Part shown: in pieces, positions 26,330-48,591 of the stretch
Position numbering within the stretch: position 1 is the first letter of the stretch
How the letters are laid out: each line of letters begins with the position of its first letter
Source of the DNA: Anaerolineae bacterium
GTDB lineage: Bacteria > Chloroflexota > Anaerolineae > 4572-78 > J111
Assembly (NCBI GenBank): GCA_022071955.1
Contig: JAJVIM010000042.1
Coordinates: 1-64,000 of the forward strand
Reading direction: 5' to 3'
DNA length: 64,000 bases
Made by a program: the position numbers and the translations under genes
The notes under the pieces: model-generated
Seen by the model: only the letters and a program-made list of their open reading frames with translations
What the model was told of the DNA's origin: nothing
Database searches by the model: none

Positions 26330-27460
26330 TCAACCGGGGTTGTCAGAAATAACCCGGTTCAGTGTTTCGATCAGTTTTTGCTGGGCCTGGGGCGATAATC
26401 CGCCGGCGGCCGCCGCCTGCAAAACGGGTTCCCAGTGCGGCACCGGCGTGTCCTGCCAGGCGATGCCGGCAGCTTCAAACACGGGCCGGGTGGCCGGCCA
26501 CGCTTCGGCCACCAGCGCCACCGGCTGGCTGCCATCGAGCGGCAGCGGCAGCGAAGTGGGCGGCGCGGACGGTGCGGGCGGTTGTTCGCCGGGGGGCAGC
26601 AGGCCAAACAGCCGCGCCGCGTTAAGGCCCATAATGTTGTCGGCAGCGTCGGGCGGCAACTTGAGCTGCTCAATTTCTTCGATAAACGGGCTAAAATCGG
26701 GGGCAGTCTGGCGGCGCGGGTAGAGTCGCAGCGGGTAGTCGGAGCCGTACAATATTTTGCCGGGGTCAACGCAGTGCAGGGCCGTGGCAAAAATTTTGGC
26801 GGTAGGGTAGAGCAGCGGCGAGGCGGCTGTATCGTACCACACGTTTTTGAGCACCCGGCCAACTTTGGGCATCAGCTCATAAAACAGCAACCCGCCGCCC
26901 CAGTGGGCCAAAATGAGCTTTAACTCCGGCAGGGTTTGCGCCAGCCGGTAGTAATGGCGCAGCGGCGTTGTGCTTTTGCCGGGGTAGTAGGGGCCAACCG
27001 CTTCGTTAACATGCAGATTGAGGGGAATATTGTGCCGGATGCAGGCCTCGGCCAGGCGCAGAAAATGGGTATCGCTCAGGCTGAAGCCCTGGGCGTACGG
27101 GTTCAACTCGCCCACCCCGGCAAAGCCGGCATCGAGGCAGCGCCGAAGTTCGGCCAGGGCCAGCGGACCGGCGTTAGGCTGAATCACTGCCAGCGGGATA
27201 ATCCGGTTGGGCCAGCGCCGGGCCAGTTCCATCGCCCGGTTGTTGCGCTCCACGCAGGCCTCGTGCCGCCGAAAATACTCGCCCACCAGCGCCACTCGGG
27301 CCAGCCCGGCCCGGTCCATAGCGGCGATCATCTGCTCGGCGCTGGCCCAGCCCTGCACCGATTTTGGCCCCAGCAGCAGCCCCCAATACGGTTCGCGCCC
27401 GGCCAGTTGGGCCGGGTCAATGGTGGGCGGCATATAATGAACGTGAGCATCAATGCGCAT
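26330..27460 (-). CDS. Amidohydrolase-family (TIM-barrel metal-dependent hydrolase) protein with C-terminal extension
   Basis: MRIDAHVHYMPP (HxH metal site) and conserved downstream His/Asp; start at 27460 or 27478. Confidence 0.75.
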   Translation of the reverse strand: MRIDAHVHYMPPTIDPAQLAGREPYWGLLLGPKSVQGWASAEQMIAAMDRAGLARVALVGEYFRRHEACVERNNRAMELARRWPNRIIPLAVIQPNAGPLALAELRRCLDAGFAGVGELNPYAQGFSLSDTHFLRLAEACIRHNIPLNLHVNEAVGPYYPGKSTTPLRHYYRLAQTLPELKLILAHWGGGLLFYELMPKVGRVLKNVWYDTAASPLLYPTAKIFATALHCVDPGKILYGSDYPLRLYPRRQTAPDFSPFIEEIEQLKLPPDAADNIMGLNAARLFGLLPPGEQPPAPSAPPTSLPLPLDGSQPVALVAEAWPATRPVFEAAGIAWQDTPVPHWEPVLQAAAAGGLSPQAQQKLIETLNRVISDNPG

Positions 27461-27519
27461 GGGCAGCTCTTTCTGCATAGCCGGATAATAGCACGGATAA
27501 GGCCAAAACGCTATCGGGA

Positions 27520-27548
27520 TTGCTTTCTGTCTGGCGTTTGGGTACAAT
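27520..27548 (+). promoter_or_regulatory. Candidate sigma70-type promoter for the STAND operon (TTGCTT-17-TACAAT)
   Basis: Hexamers and spacing read directly; 30 bp upstream of the ATG at 27579. Confidence 0.4.
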
Positions 27549-27578
27549 CTTAACCAACTTGCAAGAGGGTCCAGCGCG

Positions 27579-30500
27579 ATGAGTTTTACTGACGAGTGGC
27601 AGTCGCAGACAGCCGGCTCCATTGTTGAGGCGGCCCGATTGGTACCGCGGCTGCCCAATGTTGATCTCAAATTTGAGCTAATGGTGGTTGGGGTGCTCTG
27701 GCCGGCCCGGCAGCGGATTCAGGATTTTGAGGTGGATGCGCTGGGGGCGGTGCAGCAAGTTGTCGGTGGGCGCGCCGTAGCCGTGCTGTGCCAGGTGCAG
27801 CAGTGGAACGACGATATGCTGGCCGCCGCCCGCAGCCTGGCCGCGCTCGCGCCACGCAGCAGCGAACTTGACTCCGAATTGAAAAAGTTGATCGCCTATT
27901 TTAACGCGTTTCCGGTGTTTGCCCGGCAACTGGCCCAAAACGCCGCCGCGCCGCAGCCGGAGGTTGTTGCCCCGGTAACCGCGCCGGCCCCGCCGCGCGT
28001 GCTGCTGGCTTATGTTCAGCGCGATGGGGTTGAGCTGGCCGCGGAAATCCGCCAAACGCTGGAAGCCGAAGGGATTTCGGTGTGGCCGGATTTGGGCCAG
28101 CCGGCCGGCCAGCGCAACTGGTGGGCGCAAATGACCGCGGCCATTGCCCAGGCCGAATATTTGCTGGTGGTGATGACGCCGGCGGCGGCGCAATCCAAAT
28201 TGATTCGCCGCCAGTGGCGGGCGGCCAGCCAGCACGGCACCTGCATTTTCCCGGTTACCCGCGCCGACGACATCGATTACTCGCTGCTGCCGCGCTGGAT
28301 CAGGCAGGTTCACTTTTTCAATTTAAAGCTGGAATGGTCCAAGCTGATTGCCGCCCTCAAACAAAAGTGTGAAACCCCGCGCGTGCCGTTTATGGCCGAT
28401 GACCTGCCGGACGATTTTGTTGACCGGCCCCAGCTCGGCAAGCGGCTGCTTGGTTACCTGTTTGACCCCGTCCGCGAGGAGTCGATCCCCGGCACGGTGG
28501 GGTTATCTGGCCCCGGCGGTTACGGCAAAACCACGCTGGCCCAGATGGTTTGCCATAACGACGACATTCGGCAGGTGTTTGACAACGGCATTTTGTGGGT
28601 GACGCTGGGCGAAACCCCCGGCGATTTGAGCCGCCACGTGGTTGATTTGATCGAAGTGCTTAGCGGCGAGCGCCCCGGTTTTTCCGGGCTTGACGCGGCC
28701 GTGGTGCGGCTCAGCGAACTGCTGGCCGATCGCGAACTGCTGCTGGTCATCGACGATGTGTGGGACGCGGCCCATCTCAAACCTTTTTTGCAGGGCGGCA
28801 GCCACTGCGCCCGGCTCATCACTACCAGAAACATCAGCGCCCTGCCGGTTGATACCAAAATTGCCGAAATTGGCCCCATGCAGCCCGCCGAAGCGGTGTC
28901 GCTGCTGCGCTACCAGCTTCCCGCCGGCGGCGAAAACGAATTGCAGGCGCTGGCCCAGCGCATGGGTGGCTGGCCGCTGCTGCTCAAACTGACCAACGGT
29001 ACTCTGCGCGAGCGGGTGCAAAAATACAAACAGCCGCTGCTCGAAGCGGTTGCCTTTGTCAATCAGGCGCTCGATCAGCGCGGCCTGACCGCGTTTGATG
29101 ACCAGAGCGACGACGACCGCGATTCGGCGGTTACCCAGACCATCACCCTCAGTTTAGACCAGCTCACCCCGGTTGAACGGGAGCGCTTCAACGAGCTGGC
29201 CATCTTTCCGGACGACATCGACATTCCGCAGGCCACGCTGGAAACGCTGTGGGGCGCAACCGCCGGCCTGGATGATTTTGACACCGAAGAGCTGGCCGAT
29301 CACCTGCACGCGCTGTCTCTGCTCTCAAAGTTTGATTTAACCAGCCGCCAGATTCGGCTGCACAAAGTAATGCACAGTTATCTGCGCTACCAGCAGCGCG
29401 AGCAGCTTGTTCAAATTCACCAGCAGTTTTTGCAGGCGCAATTGGCGGCGGTGGGCCGCTGGAGTAACCTGCCCGCCAGCGATGGCTACATGTGGTCGCA
29501 CCTGGCTTACCACCTGCTCAACGCCAACCGCGCCGCCGAACTGCTGCAAACCGTGCAGGAGTTGCCTTACCTGGCCGCCAAAATTCAAATCAAAGGCTCG
29601 CACTACGCCGAGAGCGATTTAAAAACGGCGCAGGCGCTCAGTCCCACCGATGCGGCGCTGGGCGCATTGCGGCGGGCGGTATCGCAGGCCAGCTATCTGC
29701 TGGTGAAAGTTCAAAACCCGGCCGACATCATCAACACCCTGCACAGCCGCATGGTCAACATCCCGGAGCTGGCCGGCATTGTTGACTCGGCCAACTTGCC
29801 CCGGCCGCTCATCACCGCCCGCCACATGCTGCCGGATTTGCCCGATCCCCGGCTCATCCGCACTTTGTGGGGCCACACCACCGGCGTGCTGGATTGCGCT
29901 ATCAGCGCCGATGGCTCCACCACCGTTTCCGTGGACAAAGACAACACCGTGATTGTGTGGGATACCAACACCGGCGCGGCCCGCTTCCGGGTAATGCCCA
30001 GCGACAGCAAAGTGTGGAGTTGCGCGGCCAACGCCGATGGCTCGGTGGTGGTGTACGGTGCGGCCGATGGCCGGGTAACCCTGCTCGATACGGCCGCCGA
30101 GGCCGTGAAAAAACTGTGGAACGCCCACGAGGCCGGGGTCATCAGTTGCTGCATCAGCGCCGATGGCAAGCTGGTGGTCACGGCCTCTAAAGACAAAACC
30201 CTGAAAATTTGGGATGCGGCCACCGGCTCGCAGCGAGCCGTACTGGTGGGCCACGAGCGCACCGCCACCCGCTGCGGCATCAGCGCCGATGGCCGGGTGG
30301 TGGTTTCGGCCTCTAACGACGGCACGGTCAAAGTGTGGGATGCCGCCACCGGTGCGGAACGCCGCACCTTTGTGGTCGGCGCAGTTGATTCCGGGGTCGA
30401 TCAGCTTACCTTTTACAGCCAGCGCGACATCAGCTTTGGCTGCGCCATCAGCGCCGACGGCCGGATGGTAGCCGGGGCATCGTCGGCCGGCATGTTAAAT

Positions 30501-31649
30501 GTGTGGGATGCCGCCACCGGCGAGCTGAAATTTGGCACAATGGTCGATAAACGGGGCGTGTACGGCCTGGCGCTCAGCAGCGACGGCAGCCGGGTGGTTA
30601 CCGCCTCCAGCACCGGCGCGCTCAGCGTGAGAGACACCGCCGGCACGTTGCTGATGCGGCTTGAGGACCACACCCGCATTGTGAATGCCTGCGACATCAG
30701 CGCCGACGGGCTGCGCATCGTTTCGGCCTCTGATGATAAAACGGTAAAAGTGTGGGATGGCGGCAGCAGCGCCGCCGCCAGTTTGGCCGAGGTGCCGTAC
30801 AAACTCGCGGCCCAAACCTGCGCCGTCAGCGCCGATGGCCGGCTGGCGGTCACGGCGCTGGCCGATAATTCAGTAAAAGTGTGGGATGTGGCCAGCGGTG
30901 CGGATTTGGTCACCCTGCGGGGGCACACCCGCCGGGTCAATAGCTGCGCCATCGGCGCCGACGGCAAGCTGGTGGTTACGGCCTCGCAGGACCAAACGGC
31001 CATCGTTTGGGATGTTGCAACCGGCCAGCCGCAGCACACGCTGGCCGGCCACAGTTGGTCGGTGAATGGCTGCGCCATCGGCGCTAACGGGCTGTTGCTG
31101 ATGACCGCCTCAGACGACAGCACCCTCAAAGTGTGGGAAACCCGCACTGGCGAAGAACGGTTTACCCTCACCGGCCACAGCCGGGCCGTAAAAAGCTGCG
31201 CCATTAACAGCAACGGGGCGATGGCCGTTTCCGCTTCCGGCGATGGCACGCTGCGCCTGTGGAATCCGCATACCGGCGAGCAGCGGGCCGTACTCACCGG
31301 CCACACCGCGCTGGTCAACACCTGCGCCATCAGCGCCGACGGCAGCACCGTGGTCTCGGCGTCGCTGGACAAAACGCTCAAAGTGTGGAATACCCGCCCC
31401 GCCGCGGAACGGCTCACGTTGGCCGGCCACGATGCCAGCGTTACCGGCTGCGCCATCAGCGCCGACGGCCGGGTGGTGGTTTCTGTTTCTCGGGACAAAA
31501 CGCTCAAAGTGTGGGATGGCCGCTCCGGGGCGTGTTTGGGCACGCTGTTTGTCGATGAACCGCTGCACGACTGCGCCTGCTCGGCCGACGCCGGCACCAT
31601 TGTGGCGGTGAGCAGCGGCGGCGTTTATTTTTTGAAACTGGTGCAATAA
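27579..31649 (+). CDS. STAND NTPase, copy 1: N-terminal helical domain, divergent TIR, NB-ARC (Apaf-1-type AAA+), about 12-13 WD40 repeats (1356 aa)
   Basis: Walker A GLSGPGGYGKTTLAQ, Walker B LLLVIDDVWD, TTRN, GGWPLLLKL (GxP) motifs; TIR-like block RVLLAYVQRDG...; C-terminal half is repeated ...SADG..V(K/L)VWD... units. Confidence 0.85.
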   Translation: MSFTDEWQSQTAGSIVEAARLVPRLPNVDLKFELMVVGVLWPARQRIQDFEVDALGAVQQVVGGRAVAVLCQVQQWNDDMLAAARSLAALAPRSSELDSELKKLIAYFNAFPVFARQLAQNAAAPQPEVVAPVTAPAPPRVLLAYVQRDGVELAAEIRQTLEAEGISVWPDLGQPAGQRNWWAQMTAAIAQAEYLLVVMTPAAAQSKLIRRQWRAASQHGTCIFPVTRADDIDYSLLPRWIRQVHFFNLKLEWSKLIAALKQKCETPRVPFMADDLPDDFVDRPQLGKRLLGYLFDPVREESIPGTVGLSGPGGYGKTTLAQMVCHNDDIRQVFDNGILWVTLGETPGDLSRHVVDLIEVLSGERPGFSGLDAAVVRLSELLADRELLLVIDDVWDAAHLKPFLQGGSHCARLITTRNISALPVDTKIAEIGPMQPAEAVSLLRYQLPAGGENELQALAQRMGGWPLLLKLTNGTLRERVQKYKQPLLEAVAFVNQALDQRGLTAFDDQSDDDRDSAVTQTITLSLDQLTPVERERFNELAIFPDDIDIPQATLETLWGATAGLDDFDTEELADHLHALSLLSKFDLTSRQIRLHKVMHSYLRYQQREQLVQIHQQFLQAQLAAVGRWSNLPASDGYMWSHLAYHLLNANRAAELLQTVQELPYLAAKIQIKGSHYAESDLKTAQALSPTDAALGALRRAVSQASYLLVKVQNPADIINTLHSRMVNIPELAGIVDSANLPRPLITARHMLPDLPDPRLIRTLWGHTTGVLDCAISADGSTTVSVDKDNTVIVWDTNTGAARFRVMPSDSKVWSCAANADGSVVVYGAADGRVTLLDTAAEAVKKLWNAHEAGVISCCISADGKLVVTASKDKTLKIWDAATGSQRAVLVGHERTATRCGISADGRVVVSASNDGTVKVWDAATGAERRTFVVGAVDSGVDQLTFYSQRDISFGCAISADGRMVAGASSAGMLNVWDAATGELKFGTMVDKRGVYGLALSSDGSRVVTASSTGALSVRDTAGTLLMRLEDHTRIVNACDISADGLRIVSASDDKTVKVWDGGSSAAASLAEVPYKLAAQTCAVSADGRLAVTALADNSVKVWDVASGADLVTLRGHTRRVNSCAIGADGKLVVTASQDQTAIVWDVATGQPQHTLAGHSWSVNGCAIGANGLLLMTASDDSTLKVWETRTGEERFTLTGHSRAVKSCAINSNGAMAVSASGDGTLRLWNPHTGEQRAVLTGHTALVNTCAISADGSTVVSASLDKTLKVWNTRPAAERLTLAGHDASVTGCAISADGRVVVSVSRDKTLKVWDGRSGACLGTLFVDEPLHDCACSADAGTIVAVSSGGVYFLKLVQ

Positions 31650-34600
31650 ATGGCTTTTGAACAACAGTGGCGCGAGCAAGCGCATCATTGGATTGCCGAG
31701 TGCGTGCAGTTGGCCCAGGCCAACCCCGATGGCGAACTGGAATCGGTGCTGGCCGCGGTGGCGGTGCTGTGGCCGCTGCGCGAGCCGGTGCAGCAGTTTG
31801 ATCTGGAGGTCATCGCCGCAGTGCACCAGCAAGCTGGCGGCGGCTCAAAGTTTGTGCTGCGGCAGGTGCAGGCCTGGGATGATGGCGATCTGCTCAAAAC
31901 CGCCCGCCGCCTCCGCCGCGATCTGGCCCAAAACCCCGATCTGCTGGGCGCGGTCAACCGCCTGCTGGAGCAGTTTGGCGCCAAAGCCGAGTTTGATCGG
32001 CTGGCCGCGGCCGGCCAACCGACCCCCGCGAGCGCCGTGGCCGCGGCCCAATCGCGCGTGTTTATTTCGTATGCCCGCAGCGACGGCGAAACCGAAGCCC
32101 ACCATCTGCGCCAGCGGCTGGAGGCGGAAGGGATTGCAGTGTGGCAGGATCGGGTCAAAATGGTCGGTGGCCGCGATTGGTGGCTGCAAATTACCGAGGC
32201 GCTCGATCAGGTGGAGTTTTTGCTGCTGGTAGCTACCCGCGGCGCGCTGCAATCAGAAGTTGTCCACAAAGAGTGGCGCTACGCCCGCCAGCAAGGGGTG
32301 TGCGTGCTGCCCATCCAGGTGCAGGCCGATCTGCCGGAAGAGCTTATCCCCCGCTGGATGCGCCGCGCCCATTTTTACAACATCGAGCAGGAGTGGTCGC
32401 GGCTGATTGAAAATTTGAACACGCCCTGCCAAACCCCGCGCGTGCCGCACATGGTCGAAGAACTGCCGGATGGCTTTGTGTCCCGGCCGCAGCTTCTTGA
32501 CCAGGTGGCGGCGCAGTTGGTCAGCGCCAGCGGCGAGCCGGTGGCGGCAACGGTGGCTCTGCACGGGCTGGGTGGCTACGGTAAAACGTTGCTGGCCCGG
32601 TCGGTGTGCCACAGCGACGCGATTCGGCAGGGCTTTGACGACGGGATTTTGTGGATGACGCTGGGTGAAACCCCCGGCGACCTGACCGAGCGGGTGGTTG
32701 ATCTGATTGAGGTACTCACCGGCGAGCGGCCGGCCTTTGCCGGGCTTGACGCCGCCGAAACGCGGCTGGCCCAATTGTTGGGCGAGCGCAATTTTTTGCT
32801 GGTCATCGATGATGTGTGGCAGGCCAGCCATCTGGCCCCATTTTTGCAGGGCGGCCCGTGCTGCGGCCGCATCATTACCACCCGCAATCTGTCAACGCTG
32901 CCGCCGCAGGCCCAGCCCATCGAAGTTGGGCCAATGACCCAGCCCGAAGCAACGGCTTTGCTCGGCCGGGGGCTGCCGGCCGGGCCGGAAAAACCGCTGC
33001 ACGATCTGGCCGAACGGCTGGCGTACTGGCCGCTGCTGCTTGGCCTGGTGAACGGTACACTGCGCGACCGGGTGAATAATGACAACCAGCCGCTGGCCGA
33101 TGCGCTGGTTTACGTGAATAAAGCGCTCGACAAGCGCGGCCTGACTGCGTTTGATGCGGTCAATACCGGCGCTCGCGATCAGGCCGTAAGCCACACCCTC
33201 GGTATGAGCCGTGATTTGCTGCTACCGGATGAACTGGCCCGTTTTAACGAGCTGGCCATCTTTCCGCCGTATGCCGCCATTCCGCTGGACACGCTGGCCG
33301 TTTTTTGGGGCGCAACCGGTGGTCTTGATGCCGCCGCCATCGAAGCCCTGTGCCAGCGCCTGTTTCAGTTGTCGCTGTTGGCCCGGTTTGATATTCCCAG
33401 CCAAACCATCAAAGTGCATTCAATTTTGCGCAATTATCTCACCACCGAGCACGCCGCCCAGTTGCCGGCGCTGCACCAGAAATTTTTGGATGCCTTTGCT
33501 CAAAACCTGCCCGCCTGGGCCGCGTTGCCCCATGCCAACGGCTATTTGTGGAATCATCTGGCCTACCATCTGGTTAACGCTGGCCGCAGTGACGAGTTAG
33601 TCAGCACTGTGAAAGATTTGAGCTATCTGGCGCACAAAACATTTTTGCGCTCGGCCAACGCCGCCGAGGCCGATTTGCTGGCCGCCCGCCGGGTTGCGCC
33701 GGCAGACGCGGTTTTGGCCAAGTTGCATCTCGCCTTTTCACAGGCCAGCCACCTGCTGGCCGAGTGCAAGTCACTGGCAGAAGTGGCCGGCACGCTGCAC
33801 AGCCGGCTGGCTTTTGCGCCGCAACTAGCGCCGCTGGCCACCGCCGCCGAGGTTGGCTTGCCGCGGCCGCTGCTCACCGCCGGCCAACCCCTGCCCGATC
33901 TGCCGGCAGCCAGTTTGCTGCGGGCGTTTGCCGGCCATAATACCGCGGCGCTGGGCTGCGACATTGATGATGCCGGGGCCAGCGTGGTGTCTATTGACCG
34001 CGCGGCGCAGGTTAAAGTTTGGGACGCCCGGACCGGCGCGGAGCGGCTGACTCTGGCCGGCCACCAAACGCTGGGTAACTGCTGCGCCATCAGCGGCAAC
34101 GGTGCGGTGGTGGTGTCCGCTGCCTGGGATGGCGCACTCAACGTGTGGGACGCTGCTACCGGCGAACTGCGCCACGCGCTATCGGCCCACGAGGCGCCCA
34201 TTTACGCCTGCGCCATCAGCGCCGATGGCTCCGTTATTTTGTCGGCTTCCAAAGATAAAACGGTAAAAATTTGGGATGGCGTAACCGGCGCGCTGCGGTT
34301 TACGTTGAGCGGCCACGAGCGAACGGTGACCGGCTGCTCGCTCAACGCCGATGGCGCGCTGGCGGCCAGTTGCGCGCTGGACGGCACGGTAAAACTGTGG
34401 CATACGGCCAGCGGCCAGTTGCAGGCTACCCTCACCGCTTATGAACTGCGCGATTACAGCCCGGTGGCCGATTTAACCTTTACCTCCACCGCCTCATCGC
34501 TGTTGAGCTGCGCCCTCAGCGCCGATGGCCGCACGCTGGTGTCAACGCTGCCCAACGGCGCGCTCAAAGTGTGGGATGTGCCCACCGGCGCGGAACGCTG

Positions 34601-35705
34601 CCTGCTGCGCGGCCACACCGGCTGGGTTGAAAATTGCGCCGTCAGCGCCGATGGCCGGCTGCTGGTGTCCGCGGGGAATGATAAAACTCTCAAAGGCTGG
34701 GATGGCGTAACCGGCGACCTGCTGTTTACGCTCAAAGGCCATTTACGCGCGGTTGCCGCCTGCGCCATTAATGCTGATGGCACTATCATCGCCTCGGCCT
34801 CGCATGACCGGTCGGTGCGGTTGTGGGATGCCCGGGCCAGCCAGGAGCCTGTTGCCACCGAAGTATACAGTTCGCCAACGCAGGCGTGCGCCAGCAGCGC
34901 CAGTTTGCTGGCTTTTGGCGTGGCCGAAGAGTCCGTGCAACTTTTGGAAATCGCCACGCAGCAGCCGGGGCCGTTGCTCAGCGGCCATCAGCGGCCAATA
35001 TTGGGTTGCGCGGTGGGCCGGCGACTGGCGGTAACGGCTTCGCAGGATCATTCGCTCAAAATTTGGGATGCCGCCACCGGCCGCCAACTGCATTCGCTCG
35101 GCGGCCACGCCTGGGCGGTGAATGATTGTGCATTGACCCCCGATGAAACGCGGGTGGTTTCCGCCTCCGATGACAGCACCCTCAAAATTTGGGATACCGC
35201 TACCGGCGCCGAGTTGCGCACGCTGGCCGGCCATATCCGCGGGGTAAACGGCTGCGCGGTTAGCCCCGATGGCGCGTTTGTGGTTTCGGCCGCGGCGGAT
35301 GAAACGCTCAAAATTTGGGACTTGTCCACCGGCGCGGAGCGGTTGACTCTGGCCGGCCACACCGGTCCGGTGAATCAGTGCGCCGTCAGCCCCGATGGCG
35401 GGTTGATCGCTTCCGCCTCGCGGGACGGCACGCTCAAAATCTGGCGCAGTCAGAATGGGGCGGAGGTCATCACTTTAACCGGCCACACCGGTTTTGTGAC
35501 CGGCTGTGCGTTCCACCCCGGCGGCGAATTTCTGCTGTCGGTTTCCAGAGATGAAACCATCAAACTGTGGCGGATTGGCACCGGGCAGGGCGTGGCTTCG
35601 CTGCGGGTTAGCGGCGGCCTGCACAACTGCGCCTGGGCTTCCGACGGTCGGCTCGCGCTGGTGGCCGGGGCCAGAGGCGTTTACTTTTTGCGGGTTATTT
35701 GGTGA
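31650..35705 (+). CDS. STAND NTPase, copy 2: N-terminal helical domain, canonical TIR, NB-ARC, WD40 (1351 aa)
   Basis: TIR signature RVFISYARSDGETEAHHLRQRLEAEGIAVWQD; Walker A GLGGYGKTLLAR; LLVIDDVWQ; WD40 repeats; start codon abuts the copy 1 stop (TAAATG). Confidence 0.85.
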   Translation: MAFEQQWREQAHHWIAECVQLAQANPDGELESVLAAVAVLWPLREPVQQFDLEVIAAVHQQAGGGSKFVLRQVQAWDDGDLLKTARRLRRDLAQNPDLLGAVNRLLEQFGAKAEFDRLAAAGQPTPASAVAAAQSRVFISYARSDGETEAHHLRQRLEAEGIAVWQDRVKMVGGRDWWLQITEALDQVEFLLLVATRGALQSEVVHKEWRYARQQGVCVLPIQVQADLPEELIPRWMRRAHFYNIEQEWSRLIENLNTPCQTPRVPHMVEELPDGFVSRPQLLDQVAAQLVSASGEPVAATVALHGLGGYGKTLLARSVCHSDAIRQGFDDGILWMTLGETPGDLTERVVDLIEVLTGERPAFAGLDAAETRLAQLLGERNFLLVIDDVWQASHLAPFLQGGPCCGRIITTRNLSTLPPQAQPIEVGPMTQPEATALLGRGLPAGPEKPLHDLAERLAYWPLLLGLVNGTLRDRVNNDNQPLADALVYVNKALDKRGLTAFDAVNTGARDQAVSHTLGMSRDLLLPDELARFNELAIFPPYAAIPLDTLAVFWGATGGLDAAAIEALCQRLFQLSLLARFDIPSQTIKVHSILRNYLTTEHAAQLPALHQKFLDAFAQNLPAWAALPHANGYLWNHLAYHLVNAGRSDELVSTVKDLSYLAHKTFLRSANAAEADLLAARRVAPADAVLAKLHLAFSQASHLLAECKSLAEVAGTLHSRLAFAPQLAPLATAAEVGLPRPLLTAGQPLPDLPAASLLRAFAGHNTAALGCDIDDAGASVVSIDRAAQVKVWDARTGAERLTLAGHQTLGNCCAISGNGAVVVSAAWDGALNVWDAATGELRHALSAHEAPIYACAISADGSVILSASKDKTVKIWDGVTGALRFTLSGHERTVTGCSLNADGALAASCALDGTVKLWHTASGQLQATLTAYELRDYSPVADLTFTSTASSLLSCALSADGRTLVSTLPNGALKVWDVPTGAERCLLRGHTGWVENCAVSADGRLLVSAGNDKTLKGWDGVTGDLLFTLKGHLRAVAACAINADGTIIASASHDRSVRLWDARASQEPVATEVYSSPTQACASSASLLAFGVAEESVQLLEIATQQPGPLLSGHQRPILGCAVGRRLAVTASQDHSLKIWDAATGRQLHSLGGHAWAVNDCALTPDETRVVSASDDSTLKIWDTATGAELRTLAGHIRGVNGCAVSPDGAFVVSAAADETLKIWDLSTGAERLTLAGHTGPVNQCAVSPDGGLIASASRDGTLKIWRSQNGAEVITLTGHTGFVTGCAFHPGGEFLLSVSRDETIKLWRIGTGQGVASLRVSGGLHNCAWASDGRLALVAGARGVYFLRVIW

Positions 35706-35720: not shown

Positions 35721-36167
35721 ATGAAAATTGCCGTCGCCAGCGATGAAAAAACTTATCTGACCGATTTTGTGGTCAAGGATTTGAATCAGCGCGGCCACGA
35801 ACCGCTGCTTTTTGGCCCGCTGGCCGGTGTTGACCTGCCCTGGACGCTGGCCTCGGAGCAACTGGCCGATGCTGTGGCCAGCGGCGAAGCCGACGAAGGC
35901 GTATTGTTTTGTTACACCGGCACCGGTGCCTCGATGGCCGCCAACAAGGTGCCGGGCATCCGCGCTGCCCTCTGCGGCGATGCCCAAACCGCCCGTGGGG
36001 CGCGCTGGTGGAATGACGCCAATGTGCTGGTGTTAAGTTTAAGAGCAACCTCGCCGGAGGTGGCAAAAGAAATTCTTGATGCCTGGTTTTCGGAAACCGT
36101 TCGGCCAGATGAAGTCGCCACGATTGCCCAGTTGAAAGCGATTGAAGCTCGCCACGCCCCAAAATAG
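35721..36167 (+). CDS. RpiB/LacA/LacB-family sugar-phosphate isomerase
   Basis: CYTGTGASMAANKVPGIRAALC...WWNDANVLVLSLR; 15 bp after STAND copy 2 with its own RBS GGAGC. Confidence 0.75.
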   Translation: MKIAVASDEKTYLTDFVVKDLNQRGHEPLLFGPLAGVDLPWTLASEQLADAVASGEADEGVLFCYTGTGASMAANKVPGIRAALCGDAQTARGARWWNDANVLVLSLRATSPEVAKEILDAWFSETVRPDEVATIAQLKAIEARHAPK

Positions 36168-36170
36168 CCG

Positions 36171-36208
36171 GTTGGGGGTGGTTTAACCCCAACTCTGTTT
36201 TCGTATTT
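36171..36208 (+). terminator. Rho-independent terminator after the RpiB-family gene
   Basis: GTTGGGG-gtggtttaa-CCCCAAC followed by TCTGTTTTCGTATTT. Confidence 0.55.
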
Positions 36209-36328: not shown

Positions 36329-37345
36329 ATGCCACGTTCAAAGGGATCCGTAACCATCCACGATGTTGCCCGCGCCGCCGGAGTTTCGGTGTCTACGGTT
36401 TCCCGTGTATTAAATGACAAAGACGATGTTGCCATTGATACGTATGAACAGGTGAAGCAGGTCATTTCAGAGTTAGGTTATACCTCCAGCCTGGCCGCCA
36501 AAAGCATGCGCAGCCGAAAAACAAATGTTATCGGTTTGGTCATGCCTGATGTGGGCGACTCTTTTTCAGTTGAGGTAATGAAAGGGGTCAACCAGGCGAT
36601 TGCCCAGTTTGGGTATGATTTGATTATGTACACCGGCGGCGACGCCAGCGCCAGTTCGTGGCCGGCCCGCGAACAAAAATACATCTCGCTGCTTAACGGC
36701 AGTATTACCGATGGCGTTGTCATTGTAGCACCCTACGCGCTCACCTTTCCCACCACTTACCCCGTAGTAGCAGTAGACCATCACCCCGGCGACACAAATT
36801 TTCCCGCTGTTGTTTCTACCAACCGTGAAGGCGCGTTAGCCATTATGGAATATTTGATTCAACTTGGGCATCGACGCATTGGCTACGTTGGCGGGCGTAG
36901 CGACCTGCAAAGCGGTATTCGTCGATATCAGGGTTATGTTGATGCCTTGCAGCAGGCGGACATCCCCGTTAACCCGGAACTGGTTCAGGAAGGTAATTTT
37001 ACAATTGATGTTGGGTATCGCTGTGGCCAGCATCTGTTGAACCTGCCCGAACGGCCAACAGCTATTTTTGCCGCCAACGACCAATCGGCCTTTGGTGTGA
37101 TTAGGGCTGCCCACGAAATGGGGCTGAAAATCCCCGACGATGTCTCGATTGTGGGGTTTGACAATATCCCGGAAACAGCCTATTTCCTGCCCGGTGGTTT
37201 AACAACCGTAGACCAGAGTGTGCGCCAGATGGGGCTGGCCGCAACGGAAATGCTGGTCAAACTTATTAAAGGGGAGGCATTGGCTGAAACGATTTACAAA
37301 GTGCCAACCCGACTTGTTGTTCGTGGCTCCTGCCGGGCCGTTTAG
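36329..37345 (+). CDS. LacI-family transcriptional regulator
   Basis: N-terminal HTH VTIHDVARAAGVSVSTVSRVLN, periplasmic-binding-protein-like core. Confidence 0.9.
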   Translation: MPRSKGSVTIHDVARAAGVSVSTVSRVLNDKDDVAIDTYEQVKQVISELGYTSSLAAKSMRSRKTNVIGLVMPDVGDSFSVEVMKGVNQAIAQFGYDLIMYTGGDASASSWPAREQKYISLLNGSITDGVVIVAPYALTFPTTYPVVAVDHHPGDTNFPAVVSTNREGALAIMEYLIQLGHRRIGYVGGRSDLQSGIRRYQGYVDALQQADIPVNPELVQEGNFTIDVGYRCGQHLLNLPERPTAIFAANDQSAFGVIRAAHEMGLKIPDDVSIVGFDNIPETAYFLPGGLTTVDQSVRQMGLAATEMLVKLIKGEALAETIYKVPTRLVVRGSCRAV

Positions 37346-37369
37346 TCCCCCATCTTTTTTTTACCTTTT

Positions 37370-37394
37370 CGGTAACGTTACCGGAAACGTTATC
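37370..37394. promoter_or_regulatory. Second LacI-family operator (CGGTAACGTTACCGG plus partial AAACGTTATC) upstream of the sugar ABC operon
   Basis: Same palindrome as at 36274. Confidence 0.55.
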
Positions 37395-37562
37395 ACTACA
37401 CAAGGAGGTGGCATCGGTAAAAAATCTGTTCATATGGAATAGCAAGGCTTCCCTTTCTTCTCTGCACTTGAGGGAAAACTTGCCCAAAGCGGTGTGGGGC
37501 CGAGCATCACACCTACAATGATTTAACCCGTTAAAACGAACACTATTTTAAGGAGAAGAACA

Positions 37563-39068
37563 ATGCGTAAGTCGTTTATGTATACCTTTAGTTTGTTGAT
37601 TATCTTGTCCCTGATACTCGGCGCTTGCGGTGGCGCTGCCCCGGCTCAGCCGGCCGCCGAAAAACCCGCCGCCGAAGCGCCTGCTGCTGAAAAGCCTGCC
37701 GAGCAACCCGCCGCCGAAGCGCCTGCTGCTGAAAAACCCGCGGAACAGCCCGCCGCCGAACAGCCCGCTGCCGAAAAAACTGTCTTGAATGTGTGGTCAT
37801 TCACCAACGAAATCAACACAATGGCTATTGCCTTTGAAGGCAAACATGCCGATGTGGATATTAAATACACGATGATCCCGATGACCAATGGTGAATACCA
37901 GACCAAGCTCAAAGCTGCGTTGGGCACCGCGGATGCCCCCGACGTAATCGCTCTGGAAGCTTCTTTTGTGAAAGAACTGGTTGAATCTGATTTTTTGGCC
38001 GACCTGGGCGAGCTGCTCCCCGACGCTGAAGCCAACAAAACCTATCCCTTTGTGGTTGATGTTGGCACAAACGATGGTGTAACCAAAGCCTACGCCTATC
38101 AGGCTACTCCCGGCGCATTGTTTTACCGCCGCAGCCTGGCCAAAGAGTATTTTGGCACCGACGACCCCGCAGAAATTCAGGCGCTGTTGTCTGACCTTGA
38201 CAAGTTCGTTGCCGCCGCGGCTGTTGTTAAAGAAAAATCTGGCGGCAACACCTACATGGTCGGCTCCAGCGGCGATTTCCAGAATCCCTTCTTTGCCAAC
38301 CGGGAACAACCCTGGATTGTGGATGACACGCTGGTAGTTGACCCCATGGTGCAAAAATATGTTGAAACCGCCAAGCTGTTCCGCGATCAGGGCTACGAAG
38401 CTCAGGCGCAGCAGTGGCAAGAAGGCTGGTTTGCCGGCATGAACGACAGCCTGGTTGATGCCCAGGGCAATCCCAAAAAAGTATTCAGCTACTTCCTGCC
38501 CACCTGGGGATTGCCCTACGTACTGGCCCCCAACGCCAAATCGGCGGATGGTTCGAGCGATACCAGCGGCGACTGGGGCGTTATCAGCGGGCCGCTGCCC
38601 TACCAATGGGGCGGCACCTGGCTGGGTGTGATGAAAGATAGTTCCAAAATGGACCTGGCCAAAGAATTTGTTCGCTTTGCCACGCTGGATCAGGAAAACC
38701 TCACCAACTGGGCCACCGGCGTTTACACCAACGACTACCTGAAGGCCATCGATCCCCAAGTTCCCGCCGACCAGATGCAGGCCCCTGGCGACTTTGTTTC
38801 CAGCCAGGTTGTTGTTGAAAAGATCATTTCTTCCTTTGATAATTCCGAACTCAGCGCCTTTTTAGCCGGGCAAAACTCGTATGCCGGCTTTGCCGAAGCC
38901 GCGCCCAGCGTCAATGCCAAATTGATGACCGGTTCCGACGATGCCATTCAACGAGCGCTCAACGACCCGCTTAACCAATACCTCAACGGCGAAATCACCG
39001 AAGACCAGATGTGGAGCACCTGGAAAGACAGCCTCCGCATTGAATTCCCGGATTTAACCATCCCCTAA
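37563..39068 (+). CDS. ABC transporter substrate-binding lipoprotein (carbohydrate, family 1)
   Basis: Signal peptide with lipobox LGACG, Pro/Ala/Glu-rich linker, SBP fold; strong RBS AAGGAGAAG. Confidence 0.85.
   Translation: MRKSFMYTFSLLIILSLILGACGGAAPAQPAAEKPAAEAPAAEKPAEQPAAEAPAAEKPAEQPAAEQPAAEKTVLNVWSFTNEINTMAIAFEGKHADVDIKYTMIPMTNGEYQTKLKAALGTADAPDVIALEASFVKELVESDFLADLGELLPDAEANKTYPFVVDVGTNDGVTKAYAYQATPGALFYRRSLAKEYFGTDDPAEIQALLSDLDKFVAAAAVVKEKSGGNTYMVGSSGDFQNPFFANREQPWIVDDTLVVDPMVQKYVETAKLFRDQGYEAQAQQWQEGWFAGMNDSLVDAQGNPKKVFSYFLPTWGLPYVLAPNAKSADGSSDTSGDWGVISGPLPYQWGGTWLGVMKDSSKMDLAKEFVRFATLDQENLTNWATGVYTNDYLKAIDPQVPADQMQAPGDFVSSQVVVEKIISSFDNSELSAFLAGQNSYAGFAEAAPSVNAKLMTGSDDAIQRALNDPLNQYLNGEITEDQMWSTWKDSLRIEFPDLTIP
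37650..37780 (+). repeat. Coding tandem repeat (about 42-45 bp x 3) encoding the AEKPAEQPAAEAPA linker
   Basis: Near-identical nucleotide repeats read directly. Confidence 0.6.
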
Positions 39069-39084
39069 GTTCTTGTTATAGTAT

Positions 39085-39120
39085 GGGCCAGTGTATTTCA
39101 AATACACTGGCCCATTTTAT
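39085..39120 (+). terminator. Intercistronic hairpin/partial terminator between SBP and permease genes
   Basis: GGGCCAGTGTATTT/AAATACACTGGCCC 14-bp perfect stem followed by ATTTTAT. Confidence 0.55.
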
Positions 39121-39220
39121 AGGAGTCCGGCAGAACCGGGGGTAGATACCAAAAATGCCTGCCTCTAAAGGGAGCTGCCTCCCACGCCCGGTCTGCGGTG
39201 TTATTTTCACAGGAGTAAAT

Positions 39221-40123
39221 ATGATGGGTCGATTGCGATTAAGAAAAGATCACTACGGATATGTTTTTATCGCTCCTTTTATTATTGGTTTTCTGACATT
39301 TGGTTTATACCCGGTTTACAACACGCTGTACCTCAGTTTTACAGATACAATCCTGTTAAGTAGCAGCGCCAATTTTGTGGGGTTTACCAACTTTGTGCGC
39401 CTGTTTGCTGATAATGTGTTTATGAACGCCATCAAAAATAGCTGGCTGCTCTGGATCCTAAATTTTATTCCCCAAATTGGAGTAGCCATGTTGCTGTCGG
39501 TTTGGTTTACCAGCCTGCGGCTGAGAATTAAAGGTGTTGGCATTTGGCGGGCGATATTCTTTTTGCCAAATTTGCTGATGCCCGCTGCTGTGGCGGCGCT
39601 GTATTTTAGCTTGTTCTCGTTTTACGGCCCGGTTAACCAATTTTTGGTCCGGGCCGGATTTTTATCTGAGGCGATGCAGTTTTTGCAGAATGCTACCATT
39701 GCCCGCGGCCTTGTGGTTTTCATTCAGTGGTGGATGTGGTACGGCCCAACCATCATTTTGCTGATGGCCGGGATGACCGCCATTCCCGTTTCGCTGTATG
39801 AATCGGCCATGATCGACGGCGCCAACGAGCAGCAGATGTTCTGGCGGATAACACTGCCGCTGCTAAAACCCATCCTGATTTATATTTTTGTCACGTCGCT
39901 GGTTGGCGGGATGCAAATGTTTGATATTCCCTACCTTTTAACGGACGGCCGCGGCTCGCCCAGCGGTTCCATTATGACCAACAACATCCTGATGTATCTG
40001 AAATTTGCCAGCAGTAAAGGTCACATTGGCGCGGCGTCGTCTGTTGGGGTTTTGGTTTTTATTATGACCTGCGTTTGTGCGCTCGGCATCTTTTATTTTT
40101 TACGAGAAAAAGACCATCGTTGA
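39221..40123 (+). CDS. Sugar ABC transporter permease (MalF/UgpA-like)
   Basis: Six TM helices, EAA-like loop; RBS AGGAG. Confidence 0.85.
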   Translation: MMGRLRLRKDHYGYVFIAPFIIGFLTFGLYPVYNTLYLSFTDTILLSSSANFVGFTNFVRLFADNVFMNAIKNSWLLWILNFIPQIGVAMLLSVWFTSLRLRIKGVGIWRAIFFLPNLLMPAAVAALYFSLFSFYGPVNQFLVRAGFLSEAMQFLQNATIARGLVVFIQWWMWYGPTIILLMAGMTAIPVSLYESAMIDGANEQQMFWRITLPLLKPILIYIFVTSLVGGMQMFDIPYLLTDGRGSPSGSIMTNNILMYLKFASSKGHIGAASSVGVLVFIMTCVCALGIFYFLREKDHR

Positions 40124-40168
40124 TGACCGTTTGGGGTGGAAAATAATGCAAAAACCGGAGATGTTGCG

Positions 40169-41014
40169 ATGCTGAACACTTATAAATTGAACACACTGAT
40201 CCTGCGTGGATTTATCTATATTATCCTGTTTGTCCTGTTAATTGTCACCATTGTGCCGATTTGGCTGTTAATTGTAAATTCAACCCGCTCTACCGTTGAA
40301 ATTCAACAGGGGTTGAGTTTTATGCCCAGCACCCATTTGGTTGAAAATTACGGCATTCTGCTCGGCCGGGGATTGAACCTGTGGCGCGGTTTTTTTAACA
40401 GCCTGTTTGTGGCCGTGGCGTCAACCATTCTGACAGTTTATTTTTCAATGCTCACCGCGTACGGTATTGTCGTTTACAATTTTAAGGGCAAACGACTCTT
40501 TTCTAATTTTATTGTGGTGCTGGTTATGATCCCAATGCAGCTTTCAATTGTTGGCTTTTACCAGTACATGTCAAAACTGGGGCTAACCGATAATTTTGCC
40601 TCGCTGATTTTGCCCACCATTGCCTCGGCCGGCTCCGTATTTTTTGGCAAGCAATACCTTGAGTCGGTGGTGATCAAAGACCTCATCGATGCCGGCCGCG
40701 TTGATGGAGCCAGCGAATTCAGCATTTTTCACAGCATTATGATGCCTATCGCTCTGCCGGGGGCGGTAACGATGGGAATTTTCGCCTTTATTGCATCCTG
40801 GAACAACTTTTTCAACGCGTTTATCCTGATTTCGTCACTTGAGCGCTACACCCTGCCGATGCTGGTGCAAACCCTGCGCGGCGACGTGTATCGCACCGAA
40901 TACGGCGCTATCTATCTGGGGCTGGCTTTTACCGTTGTCCCCATCATTATTATTTATACTATTTTTTCCAGATACATCGTCAGCGGTATCGCGATGGGTT
41001 CGGTTAAAGAATAG
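40169..41014 (+). CDS. Sugar ABC transporter permease (MalG/UgpE-like)
   Basis: Six TM helices; RBS GGAG. Confidence 0.85.
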   Translation: MLNTYKLNTLILRGFIYIILFVLLIVTIVPIWLLIVNSTRSTVEIQQGLSFMPSTHLVENYGILLGRGLNLWRGFFNSLFVAVASTILTVYFSMLTAYGIVVYNFKGKRLFSNFIVVLVMIPMQLSIVGFYQYMSKLGLTDNFASLILPTIASAGSVFFGKQYLESVVIKDLIDAGRVDGASEFSIFHSIMMPIALPGAVTMGIFAFIASWNNFFNAFILISSLERYTLPMLVQTLRGDVYRTEYGAIYLGLAFTVVPIIIIYTIFSRYIVSGIAMGSVKE

Positions 41015-46430: not shown

Positions 46431-48557
<2,127 letters not shown>

Positions 48558-48591
48558 AAGCGGTGTCCTGTGTTGAATCCGGGTTCGATTG

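Follow-up and report, generated by a model that had tools for sequence, protein, structure and literature searches.

Fusions of TIR with AP-ATPase, and bacterial orthologues of Apaf-1 that carry WD40 sensors, have already been described (PMC7159879, PMC8195603, PMC13581612). The single-gene TIR-NB-ARC-WD40 proteins, called 'bacterial Apaf-1 orthologues' (Leipe et al., 2004, as cited in PMC7159879; PMC8195603; PMC13581612), form a family with 714 matches in many phyla, the best 120 of the 714 all showing at least 44% identity; databases name them 'TIR domain-containing protein' or 'WD40 repeat protein', and the literature that we could search reports no experiment on any of them. In plants, paired TIR-NLRs such as RRS1/RPS4 and CHS3/CSA1 are linked NB-ARC and TIR receptors, one a sensor and the other an executor; the TIR of the sensor lacks the catalytic Glu and has a degenerate BB-loop, the executor keeps both, and the sensor has a repressing as well as a supporting effect on its partner (10.1101/2025.04.11.646618; PMC9528088). 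The locus described here resembles each of these systems in part, and we believe that it encodes a conserved two-protein receptor module.

The locus lies in a 64 kb stretch of DNA (the window; all coordinates are on its forward strand) from a filamentous Chloroflexota host, where two giant genes adjoin in the same orientation and each open reading frame encodes a TIR/NB-ARC/WD40 receptor. Copy 1 ('A', 27579–31649, 1356 aa) has an N-terminal domain (N-domain), a degenerate TIR, an NB-ARC NOD and WD40 repeats; copy 2 ('B', 31650–35705, 1351 aa) has the same order with a catalytic-type TIR. Both were recognised from their reading frames, Pfam matches and orthologues, those of copy 1 lying in L001–L007. 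At the junction, TAAATG, the TAA of copy 1 is directly 5' of the ATG of copy 2. The first-pass annotation had placed this co-oriented pair exactly, with copy 2 starting at the stop of copy 1, and its account of an extra N-terminal domain, TIR, NB-ARC/AP-ATPase and WD40 agrees with the Pfam profiles, which recover TIR_2 (E 2.6e-15 in copy 1 and 3.4e-19 in copy 2), NB-ARC (E ~1e-17) and WD40, with APAF1_C above the gathering score and a weak match to Dark_WHD. The logic that it proposed of a TIR effector, a STAND switch and a repeat sensor is an appropriate frame.

The NOD (NBD-HD1-WHD-HD2) occupies 28401–29858 in copy 1 (NB-ARC, APAF1_C) and 32457–33920 in copy 2 (NB-ARC, Dark_WHD, APAF1_C). 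Every motif claimed for it was recovered in both copies: Walker A, GPGGYGKT in copy 1 (28509–28532) and GLGGYGKT in copy 2 (32565–32588); Walker B, LLVIDDVW (28737–28763; 32793–32819); TTRN (28821–28832; 32877–32888); and a GxP-type WPLLL (28965–28982; 33021–33038). Judged from sequence, all nucleotide-binding and NTPase motifs are thus intact in both proteins. The closest solved relative of the NOD is Apaf-1 (E 7.5e-15, the best PDB match of copy 1), aligned over NBD-HD1-WHD-HD2, while Pfam NACHT matches only at E 0.03–0.04. The MHD-equivalent is RLHKV in copy 1 (29355–29369) and KVHSI in copy 2 (33411–33425). In NB-ARC proteins the MHD His stabilises the ADP-bound off state; none of the copy 1 orthologues has lost it, and the position is H, Q or P among those of copy 2. 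The WD40 regions extend over 29859–31646 in copy 1 (aa 761–1356; Pfam WD40 E 1e-87, with many seven-bladed propeller families) and 33921–35702 in copy 2 (aa 758–1351; E 1.6e-94). Pfam recognises at least nine repeats across ~590 aa, a length that would suffice for two beta-propellers per protein. The two regions are 41–43% identical to each other, and no DNA-level repeat homogenisation was found in that of copy 1.

The TIR domains distinguish the two proteins. In copy 2 (32055–32423, aa 136–258) the TIR has a canonical RVFISYARSDG motif and the BB-loop VWQDRVKMVGGRDWW, and its catalytic Glu208 (nt 32271–32273) lies in VHKEW, which aligns with VHKEI of SARM1 (E642) and VLKEI of the SPARTA TIR; copy 2 keeps a complete NADase-type TIR. 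In copy 1 (27996–28364, aa 140–262) the betaA motif reads RVLLAYVQRDG and the BB-loop VWPDLGQPAGQRNWW, and Gln212 (nt 28212–28214) replaces the catalytic Glu at the position aligned with SARM1 E642. This difference holds throughout the lineages: at the Glu position all copy 1 orthologues carry Q, L or I (window, L002, L003/P0002, L004, L005, L006, L007, P0001 and P0124), whereas all those of copy 2 retain E (window, L001, L002, L004, L005, L006, L007 and P0127). E is found in 108 of the 111 sequences of the family alignment, and the three exceptions are all of copy 1 type. Family-conserved TIR positions are likewise kept less often in copy 1 (37/60 in the window; 36–40/60 across its type) than in copy 2 (50/60; 44–53/60). 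Since the betaB-terminal Asp (W-x-D) is still present, the BB-loop of copy 1 is altered rather than deleted, a point that counts against the reading of the pair as sensor and executor.

Copy 1 is not decaying, as its dN/dS is 0.11 overall (against L006), 0.09 in the WD40 region and 0.09 in the TIR, which is under purifying selection as strong as that on the rest of the protein; TIR identity among copy 1 orthologues (59–67%) is similar to that of the other domains. For copy 2 the values are 0.14 overall and 0.14–0.17 in the WD40 region. The TIR of copy 1 is, on these alignments, catalytically dead yet conserved, and the two copies are not equivalent. What is new is that the copy 1 lineage as a whole lacks the catalytic Glu and has diverged in its betaA and BB-loop motifs. 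The first reading had missed this non-equivalence.

That reading had also taken the duplication to be recent or homogenised, with 75–80% DNA identity in conserved blocks. We measured 45% protein identity and 58% codon-aligned DNA identity overall, the latter reaching 74% only in the stretch of 100 codons that surrounds the P-loop and Walker B. Orthologues were found in seven other Caldilineaceae/Anaerolineae loci, five of which hold both copies, and the copies form separate orthologous lineages there, each with 100/100 bootstrap support, so that the duplication must be old rather than recent. The grouping of both clades together against the single-gene relatives, which include L009 and L010, has the same support (100/100). 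Gene order is identical in every one of the six two-gene loci (the window plus five more; L001, L002 and L004–L007 were compared, the cut-off L003 being left out), upstream genes are syntenic in L001, L002, L006 and L007, and members of the copy 1 lineage stand beside a catalytic partner on every contig long enough to show one. The stop-to-start gap is 0–1 nt in the window, L005, L006 and L007. It is ~200 nt in the more distant L002 and L004, so the tight coupling is specific to Caldilineaceae, which also counts against a sensor and executor pair.

Compared with its single-gene relatives, which share the TIR_2, NB-ARC, APAF1_C and WD40 core at 45–50% identity over TIR and NOD but begin with the TIR and keep its catalytic Glu, the window pair has gained an N-domain, duplicated long ago into an obligately adjacent pair and lost the Glu in one lineage. 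As in the plant pairs, one TIR of the window pair has no catalytic Glu and an altered BB-loop, and the other retains both. In contrast to them, its sensor region is WD40 rather than LRR, and its genes stand head-to-tail in one operon rather than head-to-head. Two further differences weigh against a plant-like division of roles: the copies share the same domain set, with no integrated decoy in the degenerate copy 1, and the P-loop is conserved in both, whereas that of RRS1 is dispensable. As the two copies form sister lineages inside a bacterial family, any such division would have arisen independently. The Apaf-1/Dark/CED-4 apoptosome has the same NBD-HD1-WHD-HD2 order followed by WD40 propellers, the 'LHD' of Apaf-1 aligns with 'RLHK' of the window, and APAF1_C and Dark_WHD both match, but the window module consists of two paralogues and its output would be an N-domain and an enzymatic TIR instead of a caspase-recruiting CARD. 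Avs/bNACHT antiphage STANDs have the logic of effector, STAND NTPase and repeat sensor in common with the pair; they differ in that the NOD here is NB-ARC, the sensor is WD40 and not TPR-like, and the locus lies outside a defence island. PADLOC gave only TIR-domain-level matches for the pair and no Avs or bNACHT model. The suggestion of an uncatalogued system thus holds in so far as no PADLOC model claims the pair, but not for single-gene TIR-NB-ARC-WD40 proteins, which are a large named family.

The N-domain is a new element here, a six-helix module specific to STAND N-termini. It covers 27579–27932 (aa 1–118) in copy 1 and 31650–32000 (aa 1–117) in copy 2, the two being 35% identical; that of copy 2, the first sequence of alignment A2, was modelled at pLDDT 96. 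This conserved region of ~118 aa had no Pfam match, including none to EAD or bDLD models, and comparison with solved structures gave no PDB relative and no death-fold match. It is rare (88 clusters among 1.84 billion) and confined to the N-termini of STAND NTPases of diverse kinds, in many of which it holds the effector/adaptor position with no other effector present. Its relatives adjoin effector-type genes (TIR, DUF4062, bDLD1, EAD7) and transposases/integrases. A short G/N/Q/V-rich segment is present in most STANDs that have the N-domain; it comes after that domain rather than at the extreme N-terminus, and it recurs in a small effector-type protein (TIR_2, DUF4062, EAD7 or bDLD1) encoded by the neighbouring gene. 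A segment common to a STAND and a small neighbour recalls BASS amyloid signalling (10.1101/2020.01.06.895854) and EAD/bDLD adaptors (PMC8195603), from which the relatives differ in the placing of the segment after the N-domain; both window proteins lack it and have the TIR in its stead.

An RpiB/LacAB-family sugar-phosphate isomerase gene (35721–36167; Pfam LacAB_rpiB E 1.8e-33, TIGR00689 above cut-off) follows copy 2 after 15 nt, as first reported, with a GGAG-type ribosome-binding site, and is probably co-transcribed with the pair. The claim that a terminator occurs only after RpiB is weak: the hairpin stands (36175–36190), but our scan places many terminator-like sites within the genes too, with 30 detected where 16 were expected. 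Only in Caldilineaceae does the gene stand after copy 2 (window, L006 and L007, spacing 15–16 nt); L002 lacks it, and L005 has a degraded copy or none. Its GC3 is 0.63 against 0.74–0.77 for the pair.

We believe, with a probability of roughly 0.55, that the locus encodes a putative hetero-oligomeric NADase switch of a sensor/regulator and an executor, and not redundant paralogues. It is unlikely that they are independent receptors left adjacent after an old duplication, each with its own homo-oligomers and ligands, copy 2 acting through NAD+ cleavage and copy 1 through, for example, its N-domain or a non-enzymatic TIR assembly. Complete NOD motifs and full WD40 sensors in both copies, WD40 divergence that could mean different ligands, relatives that act as single genes and the effector/adaptor position of the N-domain in many STANDs are all consistent with such independence; against it, order and adjacency are kept in all six two-gene loci with stop/start abutment in Caldilineaceae, Glu loss is confined to the lineage that has a catalytic partner alongside wherever contigs extend far enough, and the simplest explanation for strong constraint on a non-catalytic TIR is a partner role, as in RRS1. 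An improbable reading is that copy 1 is a pure inhibitor, antitoxin- or guard-like and without sensing, of an autoactive copy 2 that is activated when copy 1 is removed or titrated, such as by translation shut-off in infection. RRS1 does repress autoactive RPS4 (10.1101/2025.04.11.646618), the abutting upstream position means that copy 1 is made first, and the H/Q/P variation at the MHD-equivalent suggests that copy 2 may be prone to autoactivation, but a simple inhibitor would not need the constrained ~590 aa WD40 sensor and full set of NTPase motifs that copy 1 keeps, and there is no sign of copy 1 instability.

No defence or mobile-element neighbours were found in the 64 kb window, the neighbours of the pair being metabolic and signalling genes, which counts against an antiphage-type reading; stable synteny, this metabolic setting and the lack of diversifying selection in the WD40 region are atypical of antiphage systems. 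These observations, with vertical inheritance, synteny conserved over 55–95% identity, uniform purifying selection, RpiB beside copy 2 in three Caldilineaceae genomes and the existence of bacterial STANDs that are regulators (AfsR is among the PDB matches), would fit a further alternative, in which the pair does not act against invaders but serves housekeeping or developmental signalling of filaments, such as stress- or metabolite-triggered NAD+ control or programmed cell death, possibly linked through RpiB to pentose-phosphate metabolism. We nevertheless consider this distinctly unlikely, given that all characterised fusions of a TIR NADase, NB-ARC and a repeat sensor are tied to cell death or immunity (PMC8195603, PMC13581612), that a DNA-binding output domain is absent, that RpiB is missing in L002, degraded in L005 and unlike the pair in GC3, and that N-domain relatives adjoin effector-type genes and transposases/integrases. 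We infer that the pair may have an antiphage role.

For the sensor and executor pair, we propose that copy 1 is the sensor/regulator partner and copy 2 the executor. The two proteins would be produced together and associate as a hetero-complex by way of their TIRs, NODs and/or N-domains. The WD40 propellers would then bind a ligand, which might come from outside, as a protein of a phage or of some other invader, or be a danger signal of the cell itself, and ligand binding would lead to nucleotide exchange and to apoptosome- or resistosome-like oligomerisation, gathering the copy 2 TIRs into active sites. The dead TIR of copy 1 would be a restraining and/or scaffolding partner: in the resting state it may keep copy 2 inactive, and in the active state it may contribute the non-catalytic side of an asymmetric pair of TIRs. 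Finally, copy 2 would cleave NAD+, resulting in its depletion or in a signal nucleotide, and the affected cell of the filament would arrest or die. By analogy, labour would be divided as between RRS1 and RPS4, in a bacterial receptor pair that arrived at it independently.

The two co-oriented reading frames that the first-pass annotation described lie where it placed them, at 27579-31649 (copy 1, 1356 aa) and 31650-35705 (copy 2, 1351 aa), and copy 2 does start at the stop of copy 1, its ATG directly following the TAA (TAAATG). The genes run head-to-tail; their proteins do not differ in domain set and are 45% identical in an end-to-end alignment. All three proposed domains were recovered by Pfam profiles in both copies: TIR_2 with E-values of 2.6e-15 (copy 1) and 3.4e-19 (copy 2), NB-ARC at 60-64 bits (cut-off 23.5), and WD40 repeats over the ~590 C-terminal residues. 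Both also match APAF1_C, the Apaf-1 helical domain (27-28 bits, cut-off 22.8), and, weakly, the Dark_WHD winged-helix profile. By sequence, the closest solved relative of the NOD is Apaf-1 (E 7.5e-15), in an alignment that spans NBD-HD1-WHD-HD2 (residues 144-539) and in which 'LHD' of Apaf-1 faces the 'RLHK' of the NOD. With regard to the NB-ARC motifs (Walker A GxxxxGK[ST], Walker B hhhhDD, sensor-1 TTR and GxP), Walker A, Walker B, TTRN and a GxP-type WPLLL are intact in both copies, and the motifs are also present in all orthologues. The extra conserved N-terminal domain is likewise present in both; Pfam assigned no family to the first ~118 residues of either copy, even at E < 1. Given the E-values and the conservation across loci, this predicted anatomy is real and cannot be attributed to chance.

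The two TIR domains are unequal. That of copy 2 carries the family-consensus motifs RVFISYARSDG, VWQDRVKMVGGRDWW and VHKEW, and its Glu208, within VHKEW, aligns with VHKEI of SARM1, which holds the catalytic E642 in helix alphaC, and with VLKEI of SPARTA TIR-APAZ. Copy 1 has Gln212 (IRRQW) at this position, RVLLAYVQRDG as betaA and VWPDLGQPAGQRNWW as BB-loop, and retains the betaB Asp. The catalytic position is Q, L or I in every copy 1 orthologue (the window, L002, the truncated locus L003 with its protein P0002, L004-L007, and the proteins P0001 and P0124) and E in every copy 2 orthologue. Across the family alignment (n=111) it is E in 108 sequences, and the remaining three are all of the copy 1 type. 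When 60 TIR columns with 90% or more conservation across 103 single-gene relatives were compared, copy 1 types kept 36-40 and copy 2 types 44-53; the losses in the copy 1 TIR hit betaA, the BB-loop and the catalytic positions, and core residues are retained. Taking a catalytic Glu in helix alphaC as the mark of a TIR NADase, copy 2 has it and copy 1 does not, and on its sequence copy 1 should not be classed as an NADase.

This domain is nevertheless under constraint. Compared with L006, a locus from an uncultured Caldilineaceae bacterium whose 93-95% identity to the window assigns the latter to this filamentous Chloroflexota family, dN/dS is 0.09 for the copy 1 TIR, 0.11 for copy 1 overall and 0.14 for copy 2, and among orthologues the copy 1 TIR is 59-67% identical, like the remaining copy 1 domains. 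We therefore consider the two copies to be shown as non-equivalent, copy 2 having a predicted catalytic-type TIR and copy 1 a constrained, putatively non-catalytic one. That copy 1 is a decaying pseudogene was rejected, given its dN/dS of 0.11, a reading frame intact in four Caldilineaceae genomes and NTPase motifs that are all intact. The copies also differ in the winged helix, where the MHD-equivalent His is kept in all copy 1 orthologues as RLH[KN] and the same position varies between H, Q and P in copy 2 orthologues. In the single-gene family this His lies in a conserved 'RLHD'; in copy 2 the position falls within window 33411-33425, and the Gln or Pro of some copy 2 orthologues is seen at the corresponding sites in L005 and L007. 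In plant NLRs, changes to the MHD motif lead to autoactivity.

The duplication had been taken to be recent or homogenised on the basis of 75-80% DNA identity, a view that did not survive codon alignment: identity is only 58%, and it rises to 74% solely over the 100 codons that surround the P-loop and Walker B. In seven other Caldilineaceae/Anaerolineae loci (L001-L007), the first gene is 51-95% identical to copy 1 versus 42-44% to copy 2, and the second gene, which five of these loci hold, is 52-92% identical to copy 2 versus 40-47% to copy 1; without exception the first is nearer copy 1 and the second nearer copy 2. A neighbour-joining tree of TIR and NOD that included 35 single-gene relatives gave 100/100 bootstrap support to a copy 1 clade, to a copy 2 clade and to both together against those relatives. 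Since the copies form distinct orthologous lineages elsewhere, each in a clade supported at 100/100, the duplication is an old one that took place before these Anaerolineae lineages diverged. A recent or homogenised event is ruled out by the 58% DNA identity, the separately orthologous lineages and a WD40 region in which we found no tandem DNA repeats of the kind that homogenisation would leave.

The pair keeps the same order in the window, L001, L002, L004, L005, L006 and L007. From the stop of copy 1 to the start of copy 2 the gap is 0 nt in the window and L006, 0 nt in L005 with an alternative start (12 nt otherwise), 1 nt in L007 and about 200 nt in L002 and L004; in L001, whose assembly is frameshifted, the genes seemingly abut. 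Upstream, genes for an acyl-CoA ligase, a response regulator and an amidohydrolase are syntenic in relatives. In the window these three are joined as neighbours by RpiB, LacI, an ABC sugar transporter, GH3, kinases and PPDK, and no defence genes or mobile elements were found near the pair across the 64 kb. A defence island was accordingly rejected, as known defence genes and mobile elements are not over-represented in the neighbourhood and relatives show the same synteny. The longest reading frame of the divergent Amidohydro_2 gene (26330-27670, minus strand) runs over the initial 92 nt of copy 1, which begins at 27579; as the Pfam domain of the Amidohydro_2 protein begins only at residue 73, its true start probably lies further inside the frame, leaving a short intergenic or promoter region.

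As had been noted, an RpiB/LacAB-family gene (35721-36167) begins 15 nt after copy 2. Across the window, L006 and L007 the spacing is 15-16 nt; in L005 the gene is degraded and in L002 it is missing, and GC3 is 0.63 in RpiB versus 0.74-0.77 in the pair. RpiB is probably co-transcribed with the pair in Caldilineaceae; confined to that family, it is at most a candidate functional component. Of the suggestion that a terminator follows only after RpiB, what stands is a weak hairpin at 36175-36190; this is weak evidence because our scan found many such sites within genes too (30 terminator-like sites versus 16 expected). Further downstream, window positions 36329-41014 form a low-GC block (46-55% GC versus ~63% in the pair) that codes for a LacI-family regulator and an ABC sugar transporter, with a GH3 glycosidase after them. 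The L007 locus has an HpcH/HpaI-type aldolase gene directly after RpiB, so the block looks like an insertion relative to that locus. On the minus strand, 46431-48743 and 48592-50757 code for two neighbouring paralogues, both Ser/Thr protein kinases with PD40 beta-propeller repeats at the C-terminus; the listed reading frames overlap by ~150 nt, which makes the start of the downstream kinase uncertain. L002 has a similar gene of the kinase-PD40 type downstream of the pair.

The tandem pair with its N-terminal domain and RpiB gene had been taken for an uncatalogued defence system; the single-gene architecture is not uncatalogued. Residues 1-760 of copy 1, used as the query, gave 714 significant relatives, the best 120 all at least 44% identical, mostly of 1200-1280 aa, from Acidobacteriota, Chloroflexota, Betaproteobacteria and others, and named at source 'TIR domain-containing protein' or 'WD40 repeat protein'. 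Nearly all cover only ~82% of the query because their TIR is the very N-terminus, and the two that we inspected, L009 (Piscinibacter) and L010, are single genes amid metabolic genes. TIR domains fused to AP-ATPases have been reported in multicellular bacteria (PMC7159879, PMC8195603), as have bacterial 'orthologues of Apaf-1' whose sensors are beta-propellers (PMC13581612). With so large a named family and these published records, the base architecture is of a known kind; in the literature searched we found no experimental test of any TIR-NB-ARC-WD40 member. PADLOC bore out the expectation that the pair belongs to no catalogued defence system, and such membership is ruled out at profile level: PADLOC returned only TIR-domain-level matches and a WD40 match to HEAT-ARM_XIII, with no Avs or bNACHT model, and the Pfam NACHT profile (E 0.03-0.04) stayed below cut-off in both copies. 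One metagenomic relative, P0108 (868 aa), has a different N-terminal addition, a Cro/C1-type HTH (HTH_26, E 1.2e-5), so extra modules have been placed in front of the TIR on more than one occasion.

The N-domain is rare. Among 1.84 billion cluster representatives, only 88 proteins were recovered by a profile search, nearly always with the domain at the N-terminus, fused to NB-ARC, NACHT, nSTAND1 or nSTAND3/AAA_16 cores with WD40, TPR, HEAT or GAF regions; a further group of ~640 aa has a TM helix and TPR repeats. In most N-domain STANDs (proteins P0121-P0207) a conserved segment of ~25 aa directly follows the domain (consensus QLGGDTYNITEQIKAALVNIGGVTNIQSLTVNLNL, with the core ...IKAALVNIGGVTNIQSL...), and a strict pattern finds it in 24 of 68 N-domain proteins. 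TIR-bearing members, including both window proteins, have the TIR in place of the segment, and the motif HMM matched neither copy 1 nor copy 2, so that by this HMM the pair lacks a shared motif of the BASS type.

In three unrelated metagenomic loci, a segment-bearing N-domain STAND sits beside a small protein: a TIR_2 protein in L011 (2707-7834), a DUF4062 protein in L013 (3931-11842; same arrangement in L014) and P0208 in L015 (3522-9279). DUF4062 is a TIR-like NADase. The small proteins have a common C-terminal region of ~170 aa (50% identity, E 5e-51) and carry a matching segment (motif HMM E 7e-5 to 1.4e-3; none of 115 single-gene proteins taken as negatives scored below E ~5), and other members of their family carry EAD7 or bDLD1 domains. 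This arrangement looks like NLR-associated amyloid (BASS-like) signalling (10.1101/2020.01.06.895854) in that a short segment is common to the STAND and the adjacent small protein, although here the motif is internal rather than N-terminal. The segment thus places the N-domain, by position, in the putative output region of STAND receptors. A role as a homotypic adaptor shared with an effector in trans was not supported: the TIR neighbour in L011 has no N-domain, and the L013/L014 cluster has a single N-domain gene. In that co-oriented cluster, the genes for DUF4062 and for N-domain-nSTAND1-GAF are followed downstream by one (L013 7460-11842; L014 7472-11854) for a 1460-aa NB-ARC-WD40 protein with four tandem TIR_2 matches ahead of the P-loop (residue 707).

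We propose that the two copies form a hetero-pair receptor module, and put the probability of this best explanation at roughly 0.55. In our model, copy 1 and copy 2 would form a hetero-complex in which a ligand on the WD40 propellers would trigger nucleotide exchange and ring assembly. This would bring the copy 2 TIRs into an active arrangement, with the copy 1 TIR serving as a restraint, a non-catalytic face or both, and the resulting NAD+ cleavage would arrest or kill the cell of the filament. Should the copies instead be two independent receptors, which we think unlikely, they would merely be ordinary members of a large named family. A signalling role outside immunity strikes us as less likely again, and that copy 1 is a pure inhibitor of copy 2 we regard as the least probable of these readings.

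The closest parallel to the proposed hetero-pair comes from plants. In the RRS1/RPS4 class, the catalytic Glu is gone from the sensor TIR and the BB-loop there is degenerate, both are preserved in the executor, and the sensor represses and also supports the executor (10.1101/2025.04.11.646618; PMC9528088); this dead-sensor/intact-executor signature has been proposed for recognising paired TIR-NLRs (10.1101/2025.04.11.646618). The window pair resembles these in the tight, conserved linkage of two divergent NLRs, and in a copy 1 TIR without the Glu and with an altered BB-loop next to a copy 2 TIR with both, albeit that copy 1 keeps the betaB Asp. In contrast to the head-to-head plant genes, the window pair is a head-to-tail operon; it has no integrated decoy domain, both of its P-loops are conserved, its sensors are WD40 rather than LRR, and its origin is independent. 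A bolder reading, which we offer tentatively and with some doubt, is that an obligate sensor/executor pair of NLRs arose independently in bacteria, in which a dead but conserved copy 1-type partner may restrain and scaffold the catalytic executor within one hetero-oligomeric apoptosome-like ring, as in RRS1/RPS4. The N-domain, a six-helix module common to both copies, would then be a new STAND output or assembly module, in relatives presenting an amyloid-like segment to separately encoded effectors (TIR, DUF4062, death-like).

A central theme of plant immunity, with its mechanism still unsettled, is the NLR pair whose sensor carries a dead signalling domain and controls the executor. We found no description of such sensor/executor pairs in bacteria in the literature searched. 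The single-gene architecture being already known, what is new is a conserved pair with a proposed division of labour and a STAND-specific N-domain. A compact bacterial pair with Apaf-1-type NODs and WD40 repeats would be a tractable model for heterologous expression, in which one could ask by what means a non-catalytic TIR controls its catalytic counterpart, whether there are hetero-oligomeric apoptosome-like rings and how this division of labour evolves once a gene has been duplicated. Furthermore, the N-domain defines a small STAND-specific module whose relatives link NOD receptors to TIR, DUF4062, bDLD1 and EAD7 proteins via a short motif, and these links broaden the view of how multicellular bacteria signal in immunity and cell death.
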